Below are positions 4,595-51,838 of a DNA stretch of 64,000 bases, piece by piece. Position 1 is the first letter of the stretch; the number at the start of each line of letters is the position of its first letter. The DNA is from Candidatus Omnitrophota bacterium (GTDB taxonomy: Bacteria; Omnitrophota; Gorgyraeia; Gygaellales; Profunditerraquicolaceae): NCBI GenBank assembly GCA_016208765.1, contig JACQXK010000001.1:218-64217 (forward strand). The letters run 5' to 3'. Below the pieces are notes generated by a model. The model made no database searches and was not told the origin of the DNA. It was given only the letters and a program-made list of their open reading frames with translations. The translations under genes and the position numbers were made by a program.

Positions 4595-6055
4595 ATGGAA
4601 TTAAACGAGATCCTCGCACAGAGAAGGGCAAAATTAGAGGCTTTGGAAGCCAAGGGTATAAATCCTTATGGCGCAAGCTGCCTAACAAGCCGTAGTGAAA
4701 TAGGCGGCTTAATTAACAGTTTTAAAGAAGGCGCTCAGGAAGTTGTTAAGGTTAGTGCCAGTGGCAGGATTATGGCTAAACGCTTGCATGGCAAGGTGTT
4801 ATTTATGGATTTACGTGATTCAACCGGTAAAATCCAGCTCTATGTTAAGGCTGATTATGTAGGTAAAGATAAATTTGAGCTTTTTGAACAGATAGATATT
4901 GCTGATACGATCAATGTCAAAGGAGAGCTTTTTAAGACGCACACAGGGGAATTGACTATTAAGGTTGAAGATTTTACTGTGCTTTCAAAGGCTCTGCGGC
5001 CGCTTCCTGAGAAATGGCACGGGCTCAAGGATGTGGAGATGCGTTACCGCCAGAGATACCTTGATTTGATCTGTAATGAAGAGGTTAAGAAAGTATTTTT
5101 GCAGCGTTCAAAGATTATATTGTCCCTGCGTAAGTTTCTTGACGGCCTGGGTTATCTGGAAGTAGAAACTCCGATGATGCATGATATTCCCGGAGGAGCT
5201 GCGGGCAGGCCCTTTAAGACGCATCACAATGAATATGATATGGAGCTGACTTTACGCATTGCCCCTGAGTTGTATTTGAAACGTTTGTTAGTAGGCGGTT
5301 TAGACAAGGTTTATGAGATCAACCGGTCTTTTCGTAATGAAGGCGTGTCTACAAAACATAATCCGGAATTTACGATGCTTGAGGTTTATTGCGCTTATGC
5401 AAATGTTGAGGATATGATGCAGTTAACGGAAAATTTAGTTTCTTCAATTGCCAAAGAGGTTTTGGGCACAACTAAGATTATTTTTGCCGATAAAGAAATA
5501 GATTTAACTCCTCCCTGGCAAAGAAGGTCTTTTGCCCAGATGGTAAAGGACAAATTCAATATTGACCCCAGCGACGATATATCGGTGATGTTGAAAAAAC
5601 TTCAGGAGAAGGGCTTTGCCAAAGAAAGGAACCGGCTTACCCGCTCTCAGATCAATAAAATCATTGAAGAGATTTTAGAGCAGGATATGAGCATGAACCC
5701 GACTTTTGTCACTGATTATTATACCAGCCTTTGCCCTCTGGCAAAGACGCGCCAGGATAATCCTTTGATTTCTGAGCGCTTTGAATTATATGTTGCCGGG
5801 ATGGAAATTGCCAATGCCTATTCAGAGTTAAATAATCCCATTGAGCAACGCAGGCGTTTTGAAGAGGAGATTAAAGAGCTTGATACTCAGGAAAAGAAAG
5901 TTGTGGACGATGATTATGTGCTTGCCCTTGAGCATGGCATGCCTCCTGCCGGCGGGCTTGGGATCGGCATTGACCGTTTGGTGATGTTGTTGACCGGGCA
6001 GCCTTCAATCCGCGACGTGATATTATTTCCATTGCTGAGGCCGGGAAAAGAGTGA
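4595..6055 (+). CDS. lysS: lysine--tRNA ligase (class II)
   Basis: N-terminal OB anticodon-binding domain; class II motifs (FRNEG, GGLGIGIDRLVMLL); length 486 aa. Confidence 0.95.
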   Translation: MELNEILAQRRAKLEALEAKGINPYGASCLTSRSEIGGLINSFKEGAQEVVKVSASGRIMAKRLHGKVLFMDLRDSTGKIQLYVKADYVGKDKFELFEQIDIADTINVKGELFKTHTGELTIKVEDFTVLSKALRPLPEKWHGLKDVEMRYRQRYLDLICNEEVKKVFLQRSKIILSLRKFLDGLGYLEVETPMMHDIPGGAAGRPFKTHHNEYDMELTLRIAPELYLKRLLVGGLDKVYEINRSFRNEGVSTKHNPEFTMLEVYCAYANVEDMMQLTENLVSSIAKEVLGTTKIIFADKEIDLTPPWQRRSFAQMVKDKFNIDPSDDISVMLKKLQEKGFAKERNRLTRSQINKIIEEILEQDMSMNPTFVTDYYTSLCPLAKTRQDNPLISERFELYVAGMEIANAYSELNNPIEQRRRFEEEIKELDTQEKKVVDDDYVLALEHGMPPAGGLGIGIDRLVMLLTGQPSIRDVILFPLLRPGKE

Positions 6056-40472: not shown

Positions 40473-43400
40473 ATGAAAAAGTCAATCATCAAAATTCTTT
40501 CTTTGGCTTTAATCATTACGCACTTATTTACAATTTGTTTAAGGGATGTTTCCTTTGCTGCTGGGTCAAGCACAACTACTTCTAACACAAGTACAACTAA
40601 TTCTGGCGCAAGTACAACTAAAAGCACAACAACTTCTATCCAATCGCAGTCTAAGTCAACAAGCAGCGACACTAAAACCAAGAGCCCTGCTCTTAGTTCA
40701 GCCAAATCAATGAGCCTATCCGCAGCAAGCAGTTCTTCGTCTCCACAAATGAGCACAAGTTTTAACACTTCAGTTTTAAAATCTTTTCAGAGCGATCCCT
40801 TTACCGGAAGAGCATCGTTTTCCGTTTCTATAAGTGTTCCGGTAGGCCGGAAAGGTATTCAGCCTAATATTGCGCTCACCTATGCCTCAGGTTCAGGTAA
40901 CGGCATATTAGGCGTAGGTTGGAGCTTAGAGTTAGGTTCTATTCAGCGTTCCACTAAACGCGGTACTCCAAAATATGATTCTACGGATACTTTTATTTTT
41001 AACTCCTTAGGCTCAAATCAGGAATTAGTTAATATTGGCGGTAATGAATACCGTACTAAAATTGAAGGCAGTTTCTCAAAGTTTACTTTTGACGGCACAA
41101 GCTGGGTAATCACTGATAAAGGTGGCACAAAATACTACTTTGGGCAAGATGAGGCTTCAAGACAGATAAATTCTAAGGGAATATTTTCATGGAATTTAAA
41201 TAAGGTTGTTGATCTGCAGACGAATTTTCTTGAAATAGAATATTTTGTTGATCAGGGCCAGATATACCCAGTTAAGGTTAAATATACAGGTAATCAATCC
41301 CAGAATCTTGAGCCTTTATGTGAAGTTCATTTTGTTTTCACTGATCGCGCTGACTATTCTTTTAATTACCGCAGCGGCTCAAAAGTTGTAACTGCAAAAA
41401 GGCTTACTGAAATTAAGTCTAAATTTCGCAGCAATATAATAAATCAGTACAAAATAGAGTATCTTGAAGAACAAAATGCAAGGCCGCTTTCCTTAATAAA
41501 GCAAATTACACTGTTTGATGCATCTTCAAACAATTCTTATCCTCCGGTAGTATTTACTTATCAGGAATTAAACCCCAGTTTTACTGATATTCAGCAATTG
41601 CCGATCTTACGCCGCAGTGATGATCCTTTAAGGAATTCCGAGGAGTACAGTTTTTTCCGGTATCAAAGCGAGAACAAAGTATTTAGCACTATGCTTGATA
41701 TAAATTCAGATGGATTGGTTGACTGGATACAGCGTAAAAACAATTCTCCGTATACAAATTACTCTGTTTTGTTAAATAACGGCTCAGGGTTTAATGAGCC
41801 TCTTGGCTGGGGGCCTTTATTGGGAGATTTAGCAGAAGGGGCAGTTGAATGGAGCAATGACGGTTTATACCGGGATTTAGGAGTTTTAGATATTAATGGC
41901 GACAGCCTTGCTGACAGGGTTTATTATAAAATTAATGATCCAAGATACCAGGTTCAGCTAAATACAGGGTTAGGCTTTGATAATTTTTATACTTATTTTA
42001 GCCAGTTGTATGGCGGCGGAGAAGCATATGATTGTATAACAGGAATTTCTTCAAATGGGATCAGGTCTGAAACAATGGACATAAATGGTGACGGTTTTGC
42101 TGACAAAGTAATGGCAACAAGAAATGGCTCTCCGTATAATTCCATGGATGTGCAGCTAAATAACGGCTCCTCTTTTGGCCAGATAATAAAATGGCCGGTT
42201 TCATGGGAAGACAGTAGGCTTACATCAGAGGGGTGGAATTATCTAAGGGCATCCTCGGGTAATACAACCTTACTTACAATCTTAGATATTAACGGTGACG
42301 GTTTGCCAGACAGAGTGATGCGAAAATATGATGCGCCTTATACTGGTTTTGATGTCCAGCTTAATAATGGCAGTGGATTTGATAAGCCTGTGGTTTGGGG
42401 GCCGCTACTTTATAACTGCGGGCCAGAAGCATCTTCTCCAGAGTGGAGCGATAACGGCCTTTATAAAAGATTAGCCCTTATTGATATGAATGGAGACGGC
42501 CTGCCTGACAGGGTGCATTATGAAGATGGAGATAATAAATATGAGGTGCAATTAAATAACGGCCATGGTTTTGAAGCTACTTATGTGTATTGGACAAATA
42601 TTGGCTCCCGTGGACAGGAATTTGATTGTATCACAGGTTATTCTGTTGGCCCGTATGGTGTGCGCGCTGACGTATTTGATATTAATGGTGACGGCCTGCC
42701 GGATAAGCTTACCAATAAAATAACAGGCGCTCCTTATGATTATGTGGAAGCCAGATTAAATAATAATCCTGTGCCTGCAGGTTATCTTAAGGAAATCTCA
42801 AACGGCATCGGAGGCTCAGTAGCAGTTACCTACAAGCCATATAAAGGTAAGGATAACTCAACTTACGACCCACAAAAACTCTTACCGTTTTGTGTCTGGG
42901 TGGTTGATTCTATTACTCAAAACTCAGGTTTTGAACAGCCGATAAATACCCATAGTTTTAAATACGACTCTGGATTTTTTGATTTTAAGGATCGCGAATT
43001 CCGCGGCTTTGGCTATGCAAAAACCACTGATTCCGAAGGTACTTCCAGCGAAAGCTATTTTAAACAGGACAGCATCTTTAAAGCAAGGCCATATAAACAG
43101 GAAGTAAAAGATAAAGACAACAAGCTTTATTCAAAAACAGAAAACACCTGGCAAAGTGTTGAGCTTTATCCCGGAGTTAACTTGCCATATCTAGTTCAAA
43201 CTGATAATTATGTTTATGATCCTGATAATTCCGACAATTACAAACAAACCCGCGTAAAATACGAATATGATTCTTATGGTAATCCTAAAAAAGTCATCTC
43301 TGAAGGTGAGGTTAATGTAATTGGCGATGAGAAGACCCAGGTTACGGAATATATTTATAATACTACTGATTGGATTATCTCTTGCCCTAAATCTACTACA

Positions 43401-46400
43401 CTTTTAGATAAGAACCAAACTAAAGTTTCTGAAAAGCGCTTCTACTACGATAATCATGCCAGCCTTGATGAAATCCCGGCAAAAGGAATACTAAGCAAGG
43501 AAGAAAGCTACCTCAAGGATCCAATTAAAAATACCCAAAAGTATATATCATCAAGCTATGCTTATGACAGTTATGGTAATTTAACCAGCTCAACTGATGC
43601 CTTGGGTAGGATCACCTCAATTGTCTATGACACAGTGCAGTTTTCCTATCCAGTGCAAACAACCAATGCCTTAGGTAAAAGCGTAAAAACTGTTTATTAC
43701 GGAATTAACGATTCTCTACAAGATGCAATTACTGGCTCAGGTTTACCCGGCCAGGTAAAATTCACCGAAGATTACAATACTCAAAAAAATTATAATATCT
43801 ATGATTCTTTGGGTAGAATTACTAAGGCTATCGGCCCGCTTGATTCGGAGGACTCTCCAGGAGCAATCTACGAATATGATTTATCAAGCCAGCCGATTAA
43901 AGTTGTCAGAAAAGTTAAGGTTGATTATTCCGCTCAACCTGCGTATCTTACAAGTTATTCTTTTTATGATGGCTTGGGCCGTGTGATTGAAGATAAAACT
44001 CCTGCTGAAAATAATCCCATAAATAATCAGCCCCGCCAGATAATCTCAGGCCTTGTAAGATATGATTCCCGCTGCCAGATTAAGGAGAAGTACTTGCCTT
44101 ATTTTGTGGATGCCTCAGCAAACTACGAATCTCCTGTATATAATACTCCGCACTCAAGTTTTATTTACGATGCTTTAGGCCGCCTCACCCAAAGCATTAA
44201 CCCGGATTTAACCAGCTCTAGTGTTTTATACGGAGTTTGGTTCAAGGCCACTACTGATGAAAATAACCACTCTAAGGGTTATTATTTTGATTCCTATGGA
44301 AAAATTACCAAAGTAGAAGAGCATAACAGTGGTCAGATTTATACCACTAAATATGAATATGACACATTAGGTAATCTTATTAAGCTTACAGATAATCAGA
44401 ATAATGTTACCCAGATTTGGTATGATTCACTATGTAGGAAAATAAAGATGTCAGATCCAGATATGGGTATCTGGCTGTATGAATATGATGCCTTGGGGAA
44501 TCTTATCAAGCAAACCGATGCCAAGAATCAGGTTTTGGAATTCCACTATGATTCTTTAAATAGGCTGACTAACAAGCTTAACTCAAGTAACCCAAGCAAC
44601 CCAATAACCCTGGTAACTTACTCTTACGACGACCCCGGCAAAGACCATTGCCTTGGCCGTCTTTCCAAAATAACTGATCTATCCGGCTCAACTGATTTTT
44701 ACTATGACAAATTAGGTAGAGAAGTTAAATCCACAAAAACTATTACAGGCTCAGGTACTTATACTGTTGAGCGCATCTATGATGCTTTAGACAGATTACT
44801 CACTCTTAAATACCCCGACTCTACACTCATAACCTACAGCTATAATCCTCAAGGAATTGAAAAGGTGCAGGGACTGTCCCCGCAGGGGACTGTCCCTTAT
44901 ATTCTAAATATTGATTACTCTCCCACAGGCCAACTGCTCAAGGTGCAATATGGCAATGGCACTCAAACAAACTACGCTTATGAGCCTAATACCCTAAGGC
45001 TAAATAATATCGTTACCCAATCACCAAGCGGTAAAATCCAGGACCTAAGCTATCAGTTTGATAATACCGGTAACATCAGGAACATAGTTGATGCAGTAAA
45101 CACCGCTACTCAAAGTTTTGTTTATGATGACCTAAGCCGTCTTATTCAAGCAAACGGCTCTTATGGTGCGCTTACTTACTCTTATGATTCCATAGGAAAC
45201 ATGATTAATAAAGAAGGTGTTAATTTAACTTATGGCAAAGGCGGTAAGCTTCCTCATGCTGTTACTCAATACGGAAATGACTTGTCTATTGATTATGATG
45301 CAAATGGAAACATGATTACAAAAGGCGACCTATCTCTAATCTATGATGCAGAAAACCGCCTCAAAGAAGCTCAAAGAGCTCCTCCACAACCGGTAACTAT
45401 CAGTATCACCCTAAAGCCGGGATGGAATTTCCTCTCGCTTCCAATAATCCCTCAGGATACTAAAGTAAACTCAGTTTTGGCTCAAATCTCCGGAAAGTAC
45501 TCTCAAATATCCCGCTATAGCCCTAATACCAAAACCTTTGAGCATAATGTTGCTAATACTAAGTTTGATCAGTTCACTGATTTTGAATACGGCAAGGGCT
45601 ATCAAATCTATATTACAAGTACAACAGATGTTGACTTAAATATTACCGGCACACTACCATTAACTACTCAAAACATCGGTCTTGTTACAGGAGAGAACTT
45701 GATCTTTTGCCCAAAGACAACCGAGACTACAGTAGAAGCAGCGCTATTTCCTTTAAAGCTTGATACAGATTATTCTAAGGTTGTTTACTATAACAAATTC
45801 TTAAATAAGTTTGAAGAATACTCAAGCATAAAACAGGAATTTACGACCCTAAAACCCGGAACCAGCTATTATCTTTACTGTTTAAAAGATACTACTCTAA
45901 CTGTATCCGGCTCTCAACAACCACCAGTTAGTTTTACTTATGATGGCGACGGAGGAAGAGTGAGAAAGGGACTGTCCCCGCAGGGGACTGTCCCTGAACA
46001 ATGGACCACCTACATCGGCTCCCTCTACGAAATTAACTCTGACGGCACTACTACTAAACATATTTTCTCCGGCTCAAACCGTATTGCCTCGTCATTGCGA
46101 AACGCCGCAGGCGTTGAAGCAATCTCGTATTTCCATAGTGATCATTTAGGAAGCTCTAATATTATCACTGACTCAAGTGGCAAGCAGATAGGCTTTACTG
46201 AATTTACTCCTTATGGCTCAACCTTTAAACAAACAGGAACCTTTGATCCAAAATACAAATTCACCGGCAAAGAGCTTGATTCTTCCACTGGATTATATTA
46301 TTATGGTGCCAGGTATTATGATCCGCTCTTTGGCAGATTCATTACTCCAGACACCATCGTCCAAGCTCCCTATGATCCACAGAGTTTAAACCGATATTCT

Positions 46401-47330
46401 TACTGTCGAAACAACCCGATAAATCTGGTTGACCCTACCGGACACTCGTGGAAGAGTTTTTGGAAAAAGTTCGGTGGTGCCATAGCTTCGGTGGTAGTGG
46501 GAATAGTGGTAGGAGTATTTACTGCTGGTATTGGAACCGCCTTTTACACTTCAATGATGGGTGGTAGTGCGTTTTGGGGTGGGGTATTAAGTGCTGCGAC
46601 TACTGGTGCACTAGCAGGTGCCGCTGCCGGAGGTGTAGGTGGCGCCTTCTATGGGCAGAATATAGGTCAATCAATGTTAATGGGGGCGGCGTTTGGCGCC
46701 CTTAGCGGGGCGGTCTTTGGTGGCATGATCAGCAAGGTTGGTGGACCTGATTGGAATTGGAAGGTTGGGCTTGAAAGGGTTGGATTATCTGCCATTGCCG
46801 GTGGAGGTATATCCGAGTTGGCAGGGGGATCTTTTGAGAATGGGGCGATGTTCGCCGGCGCTATTGCGGGAGCAGATTTTCTATATAGGGGTATCGTAAG
46901 TACTAAGCCTGCAGGAAAGAATGTAGGTGCCTCTATGAAAACAGCACAAGATAATGGCTTGCCAAAGTTGGATGCCAATGGTAAAGCTCTTATGGTGGAT
47001 AATAAGCCTGTAGTTATAAATACTCCGAAATATAGTAATGTCGGGTTTGGGTCAAGAGTTGGTGATATTAGCCTGGGGAATGGTCTCACTGGAGAAACAG
47101 GGCCTGTTATGAGTGGTTTAGGCCGGTTTGTTCCCGGTTTCCAAAGGTTTTCCCTTGCTCATGATATAACAGGTGATTTTTTAAGTAGAACCTTTGGCGG
47201 CACAGTCAATGCCGCTGCCTTTAATTTTGAAACAATGCCTGTGCTATATGGGCTTAATGCAGCGGGGTCGCTAATCAATGATAGCCCAGGTATGATTGGG
47301 TACTATGAAGAAAGTTGGAATGATAGATAA
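40473..47330 (+). CDS. giant secreted SpvB/FG-GAP/RHS-repeat polymorphic toxin (TcB-TcC 'BC'-like) with a glycine-zipper-rich C-terminal tip
   Basis: Layout: signal peptide; S/T-rich linker; SpvB-type N-terminal domain (…SFSVSISVPVGRKGIQPNIALTYASGSGNGILGVGWSL…); seven DINGDGLPD-type FG-GAP repeats; many YD repeats; an inserted ~185-aa domain (45381-45930); RHS core (YFHSDHLGSSNII…GARYYDPLFGRFITPD…NPINLVDPTGHSW); a ~290-aa tip starting about 46447 with GxxxG-rich hydrophobic segments. Confidence 0.9.
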   Translation: MKKSIIKILSLALIITHLFTICLRDVSFAAGSSTTTSNTSTTNSGASTTKSTTTSIQSQSKSTSSDTKTKSPALSSAKSMSLSAASSSSSPQMSTSFNTSVLKSFQSDPFTGRASFSVSISVPVGRKGIQPNIALTYASGSGNGILGVGWSLELGSIQRSTKRGTPKYDSTDTFIFNSLGSNQELVNIGGNEYRTKIEGSFSKFTFDGTSWVITDKGGTKYYFGQDEASRQINSKGIFSWNLNKVVDLQTNFLEIEYFVDQGQIYPVKVKYTGNQSQNLEPLCEVHFVFTDRADYSFNYRSGSKVVTAKRLTEIKSKFRSNIINQYKIEYLEEQNARPLSLIKQITLFDASSNNSYPPVVFTYQELNPSFTDIQQLPILRRSDDPLRNSEEYSFFRYQSENKVFSTMLDINSDGLVDWIQRKNNSPYTNYSVLLNNGSGFNEPLGWGPLLGDLAEGAVEWSNDGLYRDLGVLDINGDSLADRVYYKINDPRYQVQLNTGLGFDNFYTYFSQLYGGGEAYDCITGISSNGIRSETMDINGDGFADKVMATRNGSPYNSMDVQLNNGSSFGQIIKWPVSWEDSRLTSEGWNYLRASSGNTTLLTILDINGDGLPDRVMRKYDAPYTGFDVQLNNGSGFDKPVVWGPLLYNCGPEASSPEWSDNGLYKRLALIDMNGDGLPDRVHYEDGDNKYEVQLNNGHGFEATYVYWTNIGSRGQEFDCITGYSVGPYGVRADVFDINGDGLPDKLTNKITGAPYDYVEARLNNNPVPAGYLKEISNGIGGSVAVTYKPYKGKDNSTYDPQKLLPFCVWVVDSITQNSGFEQPINTHSFKYDSGFFDFKDREFRGFGYAKTTDSEGTSSESYFKQDSIFKARPYKQEVKDKDNKLYSKTENTWQSVELYPGVNLPYLVQTDNYVYDPDNSDNYKQTRVKYEYDSYGNPKKVISEGEVNVIGDEKTQVTEYIYNTTDWIISCPKSTTLLDKNQTKVSEKRFYYDNHASLDEIPAKGILSKEESYLKDPIKNTQKYISSSYAYDSYGNLTSSTDALGRITSIVYDTVQFSYPVQTTNALGKSVKTVYYGINDSLQDAITGSGLPGQVKFTEDYNTQKNYNIYDSLGRITKAIGPLDSEDSPGAIYEYDLSSQPIKVVRKVKVDYSAQPAYLTSYSFYDGLGRVIEDKTPAENNPINNQPRQIISGLVRYDSRCQIKEKYLPYFVDASANYESPVYNTPHSSFIYDALGRLTQSINPDLTSSSVLYGVWFKATTDENNHSKGYYFDSYGKITKVEEHNSGQIYTTKYEYDTLGNLIKLTDNQNNVTQIWYDSLCRKIKMSDPDMGIWLYEYDALGNLIKQTDAKNQVLEFHYDSLNRLTNKLNSSNPSNPITLVTYSYDDPGKDHCLGRLSKITDLSGSTDFYYDKLGREVKSTKTITGSGTYTVERIYDALDRLLTLKYPDSTLITYSYNPQGIEKVQGLSPQGTVPYILNIDYSPTGQLLKVQYGNGTQTNYAYEPNTLRLNNIVTQSPSGKIQDLSYQFDNTGNIRNIVDAVNTATQSFVYDDLSRLIQANGSYGALTYSYDSIGNMINKEGVNLTYGKGGKLPHAVTQYGNDLSIDYDANGNMITKGDLSLIYDAENRLKEAQRAPPQPVTISITLKPGWNFLSLPIIPQDTKVNSVLAQISGKYSQISRYSPNTKTFEHNVANTKFDQFTDFEYGKGYQIYITSTTDVDLNITGTLPLTTQNIGLVTGENLIFCPKTTETTVEAALFPLKLDTDYSKVVYYNKFLNKFEEYSSIKQEFTTLKPGTSYYLYCLKDTTLTVSGSQQPPVSFTYDGDGGRVRKGLSPQGTVPEQWTTYIGSLYEINSDGTTTKHIFSGSNRIASSLRNAAGVEAISYFHSDHLGSSNIITDSSGKQIGFTEFTPYGSTFKQTGTFDPKYKFTGKELDSSTGLYYYGARYYDPLFGRFITPDTIVQAPYDPQSLNRYSYCRNNPINLVDPTGHSWKSFWKKFGGAIASVVVGIVVGVFTAGIGTAFYTSMMGGSAFWGGVLSAATTGALAGAAAGGVGGAFYGQNIGQSMLMGAAFGALSGAVFGGMISKVGGPDWNWKVGLERVGLSAIAGGGISELAGGSFENGAMFAGAIAGADFLYRGIVSTKPAGKNVGASMKTAQDNGLPKLDANGKALMVDNKPVVINTPKYSNVGFGSRVGDISLGNGLTGETGPVMSGLGRFVPGFQRFSLAHDITGDFLSRTFGGTVNAAAFNFETMPVLYGLNAAGSLINDSPGMIGYYEESWNDR
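44870..44896 (+). repeat. 27-nt GC-rich tandem-palindrome insert GGGACTGTCCCCGCAGGGGACTGTCCC inside the RHS ORF (copy 1)
   Basis: Read directly. Each half, GGGACTGTCCC, is palindromic around a central base. About 74% GC in an AT-rich gene. In-frame, encoding GLSPQGTVP. Confidence 0.7.
45969..45995 (+). repeat. identical 27-nt GC-rich tandem-palindrome insert inside the RHS ORF (copy 2)
   Basis: 27/27 identical to 44870-44896, same reading frame (GLSPQGTVP), 1.1 kb downstream, immediately 5' of the block that is duplicated at 49038. Confidence 0.7.
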
Positions 47331-47343
47331 TATGGGAGATTTT

Positions 47344-47949
47344 ATGAGAATAGTAGTCTTAATCGTGATACTGCTTGTATCTTTTAGTCAGAGTTCTTAC
47401 GCCGGGTTGTTTAAATTTGACCCCGAGGCGAAATTTAAAGAAGCTGATTATATGATTAGTATAGATCGGCATATTGCAGCGGATAAGCTGATAAGTGAGG
47501 TTATAGCTTATTGCAAAAAGAAAAATGATGAGGCTTGTCTAGCGAAAGCCTTCTTTTATTATGGGAAGTTGTTAATGGCAGAAATTCCAGATGGATATGA
47601 TCGTGAGAAGAATAGTGCACGTAGGCCAGGAGGCAGCTATGTAGACGACAGCGTGACTGTAGGAAATATTGATCAAAAAGCCATGGAGTACTTTGACAAA
47701 GCACTATACTTAGCAAAGAAACACGGTCTAAATGATGCTGCCTCTGCTATATACATCAAGATTGGTATCTTGCAATACACGCGTTTTAAGGATAGTACTG
47801 CGGCTTGTGAGAGTTTTGATCGCAGCTTGGAGTATTACTTGCTATTTAAAAAGGACAATCCGAACACAACGGTCATAATACCAAAGGGGTTTGATAGTTT
47901 TGAAGAATATATAGCGCAGGCGAAGCGCGAAGCGGGGTGTCAGAAATAG
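47344..47949 (+). CDS. candidate cognate immunity protein (signal peptide + ~180-aa soluble domain) for the RHS tip
   Basis: Lies immediately 3' of the RHS stop. GGGAGA RBS 5 nt before the ATG at 47344 (alternative ATG at 47332; the track start 47296 overlaps the RHS gene). MRIVVLIVILLVSFSQSSYAG signal sequence. Confidence 0.45.
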   Translation: MRIVVLIVILLVSFSQSSYAGLFKFDPEAKFKEADYMISIDRHIAADKLISEVIAYCKKKNDEACLAKAFFYYGKLLMAEIPDGYDREKNSARRPGGSYVDDSVTVGNIDQKAMEYFDKALYLAKKHGLNDAASAIYIKIGILQYTRFKDSTAACESFDRSLEYYLLFKKDNPNTTVIIPKGFDSFEEYIAQAKREAGCQK

Positions 47950-48096: not shown

Positions 48097-48891
48097 ATGA
48101 GTAAAACACAATATTATGATTCAACTATAGAATCACCGCCTGCTACTATGGATCAATATTATGCGGATGTAGGTGAGAGAATAATAGTTAGAGAAATTAG
48201 GAAATATGGTAAAAATCTGAAAGTTTTAGATGTAGGCTGCGGAGAAGGAATGTTGGGTTCTTTTCTTTTGGACGATAATCAAGTTTATGGTGTAGAAATC
48301 TTTGAAGAAAAAGTTAAAAGATGTTGTGAAAAGGGAATTAATGCAAAATTGGTTAGGGATAATGATCCAATACCATATATGGATTCTTGTTTTGATGTAG
48401 TTACTTGTTGTCAAGTTTTGGAACATCTGTTGAATCCATTTTACATGGTTGAAGAAATGCATAGAGTTTTAAAAAATGATGGTTTGCTGGTAGTTACAGT
48501 TCCTAATATATATGATTTAATAACAAGAGTTAGGTTTCCTTTTGGGATTTGGACGAAAATCCAATTTGGCGCAAATCTTGGACACATAAGATTCTATTCT
48601 AAGAAAACATTAATAAAATTGATCAAAGAAGAAGGATTTGTAATACAGAAATGTATATCATATGGTTTTATAGTTTACTTGCAAAAACCTGTAGCTTTAT
48701 TAGCTTATGGTTTAGCATTTGTTGTGAATCCGTTATGGTTTGTAAAAAATAGAGGGGGATTAAAGCTTAGGAAACAACAGATTTATCAGAATATTAACAT
48801 TTTTCTAACTAAAATCTTGGGTTTTACATCTTTTGGTGCTGATTTAATGATAATAGCAAAAAAGCAAACAAAATTCTCCATTTCTGTCTAA
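48097..48891 (+). CDS. class I SAM-dependent methyltransferase with C-terminal hydrophobic segment
   Basis: Motif I VLDVGCGEGMLG, acidic loop after beta2 (VYGVEI), motif II region DVVTCCQVLEHL; GGAGG RBS upstream. Confidence 0.7.
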   Translation: MSKTQYYDSTIESPPATMDQYYADVGERIIVREIRKYGKNLKVLDVGCGEGMLGSFLLDDNQVYGVEIFEEKVKRCCEKGINAKLVRDNDPIPYMDSCFDVVTCCQVLEHLLNPFYMVEEMHRVLKNDGLLVVTVPNIYDLITRVRFPFGIWTKIQFGANLGHIRFYSKKTLIKLIKEEGFVIQKCISYGFIVYLQKPVALLAYGLAFVVNPLWFVKNRGGLKLRKQQIYQNINIFLTKILGFTSFGADLMIIAKKQTKFSISV

Positions 48892-49036
48892 AATTTGCTT
48901 AACTTACATTACTATAAGAAGTTAGATAAATCTGTTTGTTAGGTACGAACGTAAAATTAAGGGTTCTATTTTTCTGGATGGGAATTACGGGCGGAAATTC
49001 CTGGGACACAACACTTAACTTTAAGAAGCAACTTCC

Positions 49037-49100
49037 ACCACCTACATCGGCTCCCTCTACGAAGTCAACTCTGACGGCACCACTACTAAACACATCTTCA
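49037..49100 (+). other. orphan RHS gene fragment (recombination scar) homologous to 46005-46070 of the main RHS gene
   Basis: CCACCTACATCGGCTCCCTCTACGAA is 26/26 identical to 46006-46031, followed by about 85% identity for ~40 nt. It encodes TTYIGSLYEVNSDGTTTKHIF, preceded by an in-frame TAA, then diverges (RNQDAFHNHL, stop). Confidence 0.6.
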
Positions 49101-49255
49101 GAAACCAAGACGCTTTCCATAACCATTTGTAACTTAATTACTCCCACAACAAATCCTTTGGTCGGAATTAGATAAGGATTAAAATTAATTTGACAACAAG
49201 TAATTTATAGGTTATAGTTTATATGTGATATAGATTATAACTTATATTAAATGAC

Positions 49256-49969
49256 ATGGATAAAAAATTACGAAAGATTCAATTAGAAGTTTTAAGGTTA
49301 TTCTCAAATAAGGCAAAGAAGTTTGCTCTTTCTGGGGGTACTGCGCTTGAGCTATGTTATTTGCACCATCGTTTTTCCTCTGATTTGGATTTCTTCTCTC
49401 CGAAATATGACATTAAGGAAATTGAAAACCTGATTGCTTTTTTTGAAGAGAAGCTTAAAACAAAAATTAAACTTGAAGCAGATTTTGCCATTGCTGAAAA
49501 AGCCAGGGTGAGGTTTTACACCGTGTAATTAAAAGGACAGAAGAGGCCGCTGAAGCCTGATTTTGGTGAAGATGTTTTAATAAAAAGCCCTGAAATAAAG
49601 AAAACCGGAGGCATAAGGGCTTATTGCGCTAAGAATATTTATTTTCAGAAGATTGTTGCAATAACAGGAACGCAATTTGAATTTGACCGGATAGGAAGGC
49701 GGGTTTTGCAAGGTAGGCAGGCGGCCAGAGATGTCTATGATATTTATATGCTTTCAAAGAAAATAATGCCTTTGCATTTATTCCTAATAACAATTCCTGA
49801 ACAGTTTCGGCGCGGGATGGTGCATTGGTATAGATCGTTTTCTCGTAATGAACTGAAGTTAGAGTTGCTTGATCTTGACATTTCCGACAAGAATTTTGAT
49901 TCGCAGGAAATGATCCAATATTTGGAAGATGAAATAAAATTGTTTGTGAAAGAAGGAATCAAGAAATGA
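49256..49969 (+). pseudogene. AbiEii/DUF1814-family nucleotidyltransferase gene interrupted by an in-frame TAA (49526-49528)
   Basis: Track ORFs 49256-49528 and 49706-49969 are in the same frame, and the frame between them is open except for the single TAA. N-terminal …ALSGGTALELCYLHHRFSSDLDFFSP… is the NTase motif of this family. C-terminal …GRQAARDVYDIYML… continues the family. Confidence 0.6.
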
Positions 49970-50492: not shown

Positions 50493-51838
50493 ATGGAAAA
50501 ATACGATTACGACGCGATAATTATTGGAGCAGGGATTGGCGGGTTGGTCTGCGGCTGCTATCTGGCTAAGGCCGGCCTTAAGACGCTGATTGTGGAAAAG
50601 AACGCCCAGCCCGGCGGCTACTGTACTTCTTTCACCCGAAATGGATTCAGGTTTGATGCTTGTGCGCATTCGCTGGGGAGCTTGCGGGATGGTGGAATTC
50701 TAAAGGTGATATTGAAGGAATTAGATTTAGAGAATAGAATAGAATTTAAAAGAAGTAATCCTCAGGATACTATCATTACTATTGATGGTAAAATATCTTT
50801 TTGGAATGATTTAGGTAAAACAAAGCAAGAATTTTCTAGTAAATTTACTGATGAAAGAGCTAACATAGATAAGTTCTTTGATTTTATTGTTAATTGTGAT
50901 GCCGTGTCGTTTAATTCACTCAAGAAATCAACATTCTTAGATGTGTTAAACAAATACTTTAATAATGAGAAATTAAAATCAGTTTTATCATTGCCTGTTC
51001 TTGGGAATGCCGGATTGTCTGCTTCTAAAGCTTCAGCTTTTACAGCCATCGCTTTATTCAAAGAGTTTATGTTTGATGGAGGATATTATCCGGGAAGTAG
51101 CATGCAACAGCGTTTGTTAATAAAATAAAATTAAAAGATGACCGTGTTGATGGAGTAGAAATAAATGGCAGATATTTTAAATCTGGAAAGTATATAGTTT
51201 CTGATGTTGATGCAACTCAAACTTTCTTGGATTTGGTAGGTGAGAGGGTAATAGGAAAAGATAGTAAACAGAAATTAGCTTTATTAAAACCAGCTCATTC
51301 TATTCTTGTTTTATATCTTGGTACAGATGGAAAATTAAGCAACATGCCTATTGGTACCAACGTTTGGGCTATGCCTAATTATGATATTGAGAAGATGTAT
51401 TGTCTTGTAGATGATGGTGTAGTTGATGATTTAGATTGTTATTTATTGAGGTTAATGCCTGATAAGAAGAGTATGGTCATGCTTGTTAATGCTCCTTTTA
51501 AAGATAGTGATTTTTGGAGAGAAAACAAACAAAGGCTGATTGATAATTTTATAGAAAAGATTAAATTTGTAATTCCAGATATAAGAGAACGAATTGTATT
51601 TAAAGATGCAGCTACTCCTGCAACACTTTATAGATGGACATTAAACTATCATGGTTCTGCTTATGGTTGGGAAGGCGCTCCATCTCAGTTTCTGGTTAAC
51701 AGTTTTTCTCAGAATACTTTTATTGAAGGTTTGTATTTAACTGGTCATTGGGCAACTTTGGTGCAGGGAATTTCAGGAGTTACAAGATTGGGGAGAGATA
51801 CAGCTAGAATTATTATAAATAAAAGTAGAAGAAAATGA
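50493..51838 (+). pseudogene. CrtI/phytoene-desaturase-family FAD-dependent oxidoreductase split by a frameshift near 51105-51125
   Basis: N-terminal Rossmann YDAIIIGAGIGGLVCGCYLAKAG…EKNAQPGGYCTSF. The +1 frame continues without a stop (…FVNKIKLKDDRVDGVEINGRYFKSGKYIVSDVDATQTF…) into track ORF 51227-51838 (…GSAYGWEGAPSQF…). The shift lies in an A-rich run. Confidence 0.6.

Follow-up and report, generated by a model that had tools for sequence, protein, structure and literature searches.

Some 1.7 kb downstream of the stop codon of an intact RHS toxin gene, and on the same strand, the 64-kb window (the whole stretch of 64,000 nucleotides analysed here) carries a 75-nt scrap of RHS coding sequence at 49025-49099, which is probably the non-functional 5' stump of a dissociated RHS 3' module, debris of C-terminal tip turnover. 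A scar of such turnover is also what an earlier note on this DNA had taken it for, and that reading is supported by the nature of the relic, a non-coding remnant downstream of an intact gene, and by the polymorphism of the tips, which in the related allele L001 are unrelated after DPTGHSW. In enterobacteria, orphan modules made of an rhs core fragment and a tip arise by C-terminal displacement (Jackson et al. 2009, PMC2935791; Poole et al. 2011, PMC3150448), and dissociated rhs modules also occur in bee-gut Snodgrassella (PMC5727410). The displacement model has newly arrived DNA, made up of core and tip, recombine with the resident gene, the core fragments that are thereby dissociated staying behind downstream (PMC2935791; see also PMC5727410), and the present data fit it. 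The relic resembles the enterobacterial orphans in being a same-strand fragment downstream of an intact gene, in lacking a translation start of its own, and in deriving from another allele of the same RHS clade at a locus whose post-DPxG tip is polymorphic. It differs from them in that only 75 nt are left, upstream of the TIGR03696 core, with no alternative tip or immunity gene following, and in that the host is an uncultivated member of the Omnitrophica and the protein a Tc-toxin BC-like fusion (SpvB + TcdB_midN + RHS).

The Intact RHS Gene and its Tip

The intact gene (40473-47330, + strand) encodes a 2285-aa RHS/Tc-toxin BC-like polymorphic toxin with matches to Pfam SpvB, TcdB_toxin_midN, FG-GAP and RHS_repeat. 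Together with SpvB and TcdB_toxin_midN, the RHS_repeat match (PF05593, E 3.5e-31) identifies a YD/RHS-repeat shell, and TIGR03696, matched with 87.9 bits (cut-off 32.5) at nt 46203-46445, identifies a core domain whose DPxG end, reading PINLVDPTGHSW, is followed by a variable tip. An orthologous RHS gene of 2319 aa in locus L001 (JACROO010000131.1) is 88% identical to the window over 42990-46453, with homology ending just after DPTGHSW; the window's tip (46454-47330) is allele-specific, and in L001 the tip is unrelated and other small ORFs follow. The tips at this locus are therefore polymorphic, as in classical Rhs systems. The L001 contig appears to end about 860 nt past the RHS gene, as inferred from an off-centre match in an 8000-nt locus. 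Directly after the window's toxin gene stands a 201-aa ORF for a secreted, TPR-like protein (47344-47949, +), a putative immunity protein so designated from its position; it is also called as a gene in L002, has no match in Pfam or NCBIfam, and shows weak TPR-like similarity to the ORF that follows the RHS gene of L037.

Two further observations concern the alleles as such. The FG-GAP/beta-propeller parts (41146-42990 in the window, 854-2761 in L001) cannot be aligned as DNA, with both flanks 84-90% identical, a pattern that hints at a further exchangeable module in the gene's N-terminal half. Moreover, L001 is labelled 'Nitrospirae bacterium', its RHS gene and 183 nt upstream are 84-88% identical to the window, and the window's methyltransferase is identical to a 'Candidatus Omnitrophica' MAG protein; one of the two labels or bins is probably wrong.

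The Relic

Most of the relic is a 63-nt block (49037-49099, +; 'TTYIGSLYE(V)NSDGTTTKHIF') that matches 46005-46067 (+) of the intact gene, RHS residues 1845-1865, at 58/63 positions (92%), the two copies lying 3032 nt apart as same-strand direct repeats. The first 27 nt (49037-49063 and 46005-46031) are identical and 31 of the next 36 (86%) agree, so that the 26/26 block with an approximately 85% tail described in the earlier note needs only one base added at its start, and the similarity withstands careful alignment (58/63 to the resident gene, 70/75 to L001). Within the intact gene the block lies 136 nt upstream of TIGR03696, just upstream of the core as had been said, and the relic's homology ends at 49099, 45 codons short of the predicted core start. 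In the RHS frame the region reads TAA (49022-24), EATS, TTYIGSLYEVNSDGTTTKHIF, RNQDAFHNHL, TAA: there is no start codon in the relic, an in-frame stop lies four codons upstream, and a second stop follows ten unrelated codons downstream, both stops where they had previously been placed. The GC-rich codons on which the earlier note remarked are borne out at third positions (GC3 0.76 in the relic and 0.57 in the intact copy, against 0.355 for the whole RHS gene) but not in total GC, which is ordinary, 39% of the gene's 63-nt windows equalling or exceeding the block.

RHS homology ends abruptly at a right breakpoint, 49099/49100, after which comes a unique spacer (49100-49180) that resembles neither RHS allele nor any of the fetched loci. 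Searches with both alleles by tblastn and short-word blastn, over 48850-49300 and over the whole window, found no RHS similarity beyond 49025-49099, hence no further orphan fragments in the 64 kb. The relic thus shares with orphan modules its homology to a conserved stretch of the main rhs gene and its place downstream on the same strand, but its sequence does not extend through a core to DPxG, and neither an alternative C-terminal toxin domain nor an immunity gene accompanies it, the next gene belonging to an AbiEii module with its own promoter. That only a short scar remains, as claimed before, is confirmed by this lack of core, tip or immunity sequence after 49099. As no core, toxin or immunity sequence follows and there is no start codon, we regard it as a dead 5' stump rather than an orphan toxin cassette; and with no start codon, an in-frame stop four codons upstream, and no core or toxin encoded, the stump does nothing today.

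The relic occupies a 364-nt gap between a methyltransferase ORF (48097-48891) and the AbiEii toxin gene (49256 onward), and its sequence is 100% identical in L002 and L003, two Logan assemblies of the same population. A minus-strand ORF of 82 aa (48899-49147), annotated in L002, overlaps it; without a family match and given this overlap, it is probably spurious and was treated as such.

Allelic Source and In-Frame Hairpin Inserts

A scan with the 27-mer of one genome per species (185,579 species' genomes) gave L001 as the sole match, within its RHS gene, and a metagenome scan with a 24-mer from inside the 27-mer gave none. Over 49025-49099 the relic agrees with L001 at 70/75 positions by BLAST (93%). 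Within the 63-nt block it is closer to L001 (60/63, at 5803-5865) than to the resident gene (58/63), and it continues for 12 nt further, GAAGCAACTTCC ('EATS', 49025-49036, +), into the tail of an SLR..EAIS-type insert, where it matches 10/12 bases of L001 5791-5802 (GAAGCAATCTCC) and 3/12 of the equivalent bases of the window gene. The relic is accordingly not the duplicate of the present gene's block for which it had been taken. All five differences between relic and resident gene are AT-to-GC in direction and four fall at codon position 3 (P = 0.045 for random positions, a modest significance resting on five differences); this points to a once-functional allele as the source of the scrap. 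The sole amino-acid change, ATT-to-GTC (I to V), yields the commonest residue of the family at this site (SLYEV). On the sequence evidence, then, the relic, which reads ..TACGAAGTCAAC..CACATCTTC preceded by ..GAAGCAACTTCC, stems from a third, L001-like allele with an SLR..EAIS insert before TTYIGS and not from the resident gene's copy, and this source allele appears to have diverged while still under coding constraint.

The inserts belong to two unrelated families of in-frame hairpins found in RHS loops, a GGGACTGTCCCC-type ('GLSPQGTVP') and a CATTGCGA..GAAGCAATC-type ('SLR..EAIS'), both confined within the window to the RHS gene. The loop before TTYIGS holds in the window a 29-nt GLSPQGTVP insert with a perfect stem (copy 2, 45967-45995, +; DNA fold -13.2 kcal/mol, z -3.8), an exact direct repeat of copy 1 at 44869-44897, and in L001 a different hairpin, encoding SSLRDAEGGEAIS. 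Both GLSPQGTVP sites of the window are occupied in L001 by SLR..EAIS-type inserts (hairpin inserts of L001 lie at 4643-4680, 5048-5085, 5768-5805 and 5891-5928), and the two alleles have in common an SLR..EAIS-type hairpin ('SSLRNAAGVEAIS') in the core-proximal loop (46089-46126, +; fold -9.7 kcal/mol). Similar inserts occur in other members of the family, such as P0008 ('GLSPQGT') and P0013 ('SLRGASAASDEVIS'). The nine nt after hairpin copy 2 (45996-46004, GAACAATGG, 'EQW') resemble by eye the GAAGCAATCTCC tail, and in the loop before TTYIGS an older SLR..EAIS insert may have given way to the GLSPQGTVP hairpin. Palindromic elements of Rickettsia are reportedly inserted in frame in protein genes. 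The inserts described here are like them in being short hairpin repeats placed in frame in surface loops of a coding gene, and unlike them in repeat family and phylum; the comparison concerns the inserts neighbouring the block, not the relic.

Surroundings of the Relic

The DNA around the relic is a patchwork of a stray methyltransferase gene, a toxin-antitoxin module and an 86-nt element that L005 also has. The SAM-dependent methyltransferase gene (48097-48891, +; Pfam Methyltransf_11/23), between toxin locus and relic, is full length and 100% identical to a 'Candidatus Omnitrophica' MAG protein (P0121) on a 258,789-nt contig; its natural end is ..IAKK, and its stop has been replaced by eight codons from the 86-nt element, which also provides the stop of the present ORF. 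As a gene of the RHS cassette it was considered and rejected, its homologues lying in glycan-biosynthesis clusters and not in RHS loci; because it is not RHS-associated elsewhere, the interval between toxin gene and relic is no simple cassette. The 86-nt element (48863-48948, +), conserved, non-coding and built of nested inverted repeats, is 87% identical to L005 1836-1921, which comes after an orphan RHS module and a small ORF and is separated by 170 nt from the RAYT-like gene downstream. The element shows no significant fold. RNA explanations found no footing in a search of Rfam, without a match even at E = 1, or in the relic's left flank, which has no hairpin.

On the other side of the relic, an AbiEii-type toxin module (49181-49969, +) consists of an operator/promoter region, 49181-49251, and a disrupted AbiEii gene, preceded by a strong promoter-like site, TTGACA-17-TATAGT, at 49190-49218. 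The palindrome-rich 49181-49251 is 75-82% conserved upstream of AbiEii/HTH gene pairs in unrelated metagenomes, in both orientations, and is probably, on this comparison, the operator of the toxin-antitoxin module, in which the toxin gene here precedes the HTH gene. The AbiEii relatives in metagenomes reach at most 63% amino-acid identity, and conservation starts at about 49181, taking in the operator region only. Compared with L002, where the AbiEii ORF is intact at 237 aa, five clustered substitutions at 49510-49566 break the window's ORF, and a 58-nt deletion at 51107 divides an amine-oxidase/FAD gene in two (50493-51128 and 51227-51838); these disruptions are either real pseudogenes of the strain or local assembly errors. 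Look-ups of the window's genes by exact protein either came back empty or led to short Logan contigs, all of the same locus (L002-L004).

Orphan Modules in Related Loci

Searching proteins with the last third of the RHS gene product brought up many short 'core + tip' ORFs, whose contigs were compared. L007, from an Omnitrophota MAG, is a textbook array, in which a 2200-aa main gene is followed by a 95-aa ORF, orphan 1, a 128-aa ORF, orphan 2 and a Y1 transposase gene; the order of main gene, small ORF and orphan is also that of L037. RHS homology begins with KKITPTSTTTYVGSLFE in orphan 1 (P0069) and about 75 codons further upstream in orphan 2, with ESFITSFEYDGDGGRIKK in the orphan (P0110) of L037 (from another Omnitrophica MAG, L036 and L038 representing the same locus), and with (F)YI..GSLFE, the same YIGSLFE block, in that of L005 (P0017). 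L007 orphan 1 and the L037 and L005 orphans resemble the relic in belonging to the same RHS subfamily and in having their 5' limit in or near the same loop (KK..TTY), and those of L007 and L037 share its REP-like motif just upstream; they differ from it in running on through core, tip and a small downstream ORF, where the window's homology ends after 21 codons.

The 5' limits of the five dissociated modules lie between about 75 codons upstream and about 10 codons downstream of the hairpin loop, and four of the five, the window's included, fall within about 14 codons of the loop that bears the hairpins in the window and L001. The identity profile of the two intact alleles shows no breakpoint at the insert, climbing gradually from 90% to 98% coreward without a step at 46005. 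The earlier claim that the locus recombined exactly at the insert therefore survives in part: the relic's 5' limit does lie in the same loop, but there is no allele breakpoint there and the module limits are scattered.

The REP-Like Junction Motif and RAYT-Like Genes

The motif in question, TTCCTGGGACACAACACTTAACT (23 nt, 48998-49020, +), occurs once in the window, 2-4 nt upstream of the relic. L007 carries TTCCGGGGACACATTACTTAATT 7 nt before the homology of orphan 1, and the alignment score of the window and L007 upstream regions, a pair picked after the similarity had been noticed, was reached by 0/1000 shuffles. The pattern TTCCNGGGACACANNACTTAA is found at three distinct places among 35 loci and the window, namely the window's own locus, L007 9938-9958 and L006 12420-12440(-). 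L037 has a variant at 1696-1718, 12-15 nt 5' of its orphan, and a second copy (8868) in unrelated intergenic DNA; L006 has an inverted pair and partial tandem copies beside Y1 transposase gene fragments. In the window, L007 and L037 the motif thus stands in the same orientation 2-15 nt 5' of RHS homology; it is absent from L007 orphan 2, L005 has at most a degenerate trace, and a scan of viral contigs gave no match. By these occurrences it behaves like a dispersed REP-like repeat of these genomes, of which the window has a single copy exactly at the relic.

All five related loci with enough flank have genes or gene fragments of Y1 transposases a few kb beyond their last RHS module (L005 2092-2760; L006 12126-14076; L007 14553-15065; L008 15064-16011; L037 6929-7177), and the three scored against NCBIfam (L005, L007, L008) have as best match NF047646, REP-associated tyrosine transposase. 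tblastn with three of the genes detected none in the window or in 27 AbiEii loci. REP/REPIN repeats and their associated tyrosine transposases, RAYTs, are known (Nunvar et al. 2010, PMC2817692; Bertels & Rainey 2011, PMC3116915). The present motif is like them in being short and GC-rich, in forming an inverted pair in L006, in being dispersed in related genomes and in having RAYT-like genes nearby in related loci; it is unlike them in that the window has a single diverged copy and no RAYT gene. The many copies and inverted pairs typical of REP systems are represented by one copy in 64 kb, with an inverted pair or extra copies only in L006 and L037, and a RAYT gene flanked by repeats is lacking in the window, RAYT-like genes being those of L005-L008 and L037. 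No paper connecting REP/RAYT elements with RHS exchange was found in the literature searched. The association of motif and RAYT-like genes with orphan junctions, seen in a small sample chosen after the pattern had been noticed, is an unproven lead.

Origin of the Relic

The reading as a stump of a dissociated module is favoured by the uniqueness of the repeat, its different allelic source and coding constraint, the polymorphic tips, the orphan arrays of L007 and L037 and the L005 orphan that begins in the same block, the shared junction motif, the absence of other RHS homology around the stump or elsewhere in the window, and the patchwork surroundings. Under it, homologous recombination within the conserved shell/core region (Jackson et al. 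2009, PMC2935791) would have linked to the resident gene a 3' RHS segment comprising core, current toxin tip, 201-aa ORF and passenger DNA, and the module starting at 49025 would have been pushed, or carried, downstream. The core, toxin and immunity sequences missing past 49099 would have been removed by later deletion, or the imported DNA would have ended there and been joined illegitimately. The one thing that recombination between the 63-nt repeats could bring about is loss of the current core, tip and immunity genes. The relic may have arrived with the present cassette rather than been the resident tip. What speaks against a stump of an orphan is that classical orphans keep core and tip, and the relic has neither and lies wholly upstream of TIGR03696. 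Sister genomes in which this position holds a full orphan, or is empty, were not found, the comparison loci L002 and L003 being near-identical to the window. The sequences show that the relic is of RHS origin, that it stems from a different allele, that the motif stands at its junction and that core, tip and immunity sequence are absent; the recombination route, by contrast, is a history that we infer rather than one observed.

A sub-variant of this explanation does without a resident tip and without a later deletion, and we consider it a reasonable possibility, though we lean away from it. A donor array would already have contained main gene, tip, passenger DNA, REP-like motif and orphan, and a linear piece of it, ending 75 nt into the donor's first orphan, would have entered in one step, by homologous joining of its left end within the RHS gene and illegitimate joining of its right end at 49099/49100. 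Such a truncated import needs one event instead of two. It accords with the relic's GC3, far above that of the gene, and with the single-copy state of the REP-like motif and the 86-nt element in a 64-kb window without a RAYT, both being present in other Omnitrophica RHS loci. Against it, neither the 27-mer genome scan, which gave only L001, nor the 24-mer metagenome scan, which gave nothing, produced a donor, and a model with a circular intermediate would likewise bring in the motif and the first part of the relic, the data not separating the two.

A more far-reaching proposal, which we think unlikely, is that tip exchange in the Omnitrophica is more than homologous recombination. A REP-associated tyrosine (HUH) transposase would cut or join single-stranded DNA at hairpins and REP-like repeats: RAYTs at the array ends would recognise the in-frame hairpins and the TTCCGGGGACAC motif before orphans, define the 5' end of modules, and give rise to the intermediates, single-stranded or circular, by which tips pass between genomes, the circular ones being those postulated by Jackson et al., and the relic would be a footprint of this activity. 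The motif's place 2-15 nt 5' of three dissociated modules with differing RHS breakpoints argues for it, as do the hairpin inserts occupying the same loop and the Y1 genes or fragments downstream of RHS modules in L005, L006, L007, L008 and L037, REP-associated by the best NCBIfam match of the three scored and without counterpart in the 27 AbiEii loci (tblastn). These points have to be set against a 64-kb window with neither a RAYT gene nor a second copy of the motif, an L007 orphan 2 without it and at most a degenerate trace in L005, its occurrence also away from RHS genes (L037 8868, L006), a small sample picked post hoc, a cleavage-site logic that is hypothetical, and a searched literature in which no paper joins REP/RAYT and RHS systems.

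Far less probable still is a local duplication of the resident block, by slippage or through a tandem duplication since collapsed, with neutral drift thereafter. The arrangement of the copies as direct repeats on one strand, 3032 nt apart, would suit it, but the relic is nearer to L001 than to the resident gene, its insert tail is of a type that the resident lacks at this site (3/12 against 10/12), third-position AT-to-GC differences in an AT-rich genome are the opposite of neutral decay, and the motif that precedes it is common to orphans elsewhere. Chance, or a common dispersed repeat that has nothing to do with RHS, the possibility behind the earlier suggestion that such 26-mers might be frequent, can be dismissed, since the 27-mer has no third site in the 64-kb window with up to three mismatches allowed (shuffles expect 0.00) and its one match among the 185,579 species' genomes lies inside the orthologous RHS gene.

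Implications

The relic is a real but ordinary scar of the known turnover of RHS tips, here in a new example from an uncultivated phylum. It dates at least one recombination event and records that the locus held, or received DNA from, a second RHS allele, and it extends the picture of C-terminal displacement drawn in enterobacteria to the Tc-toxin-like RHS genes of this phylum. If confirmed by a proper survey, the pattern of motif and RAYT-like genes would address the question left open by Jackson et al., that of the origin of the mobile intermediates that carry the tips.
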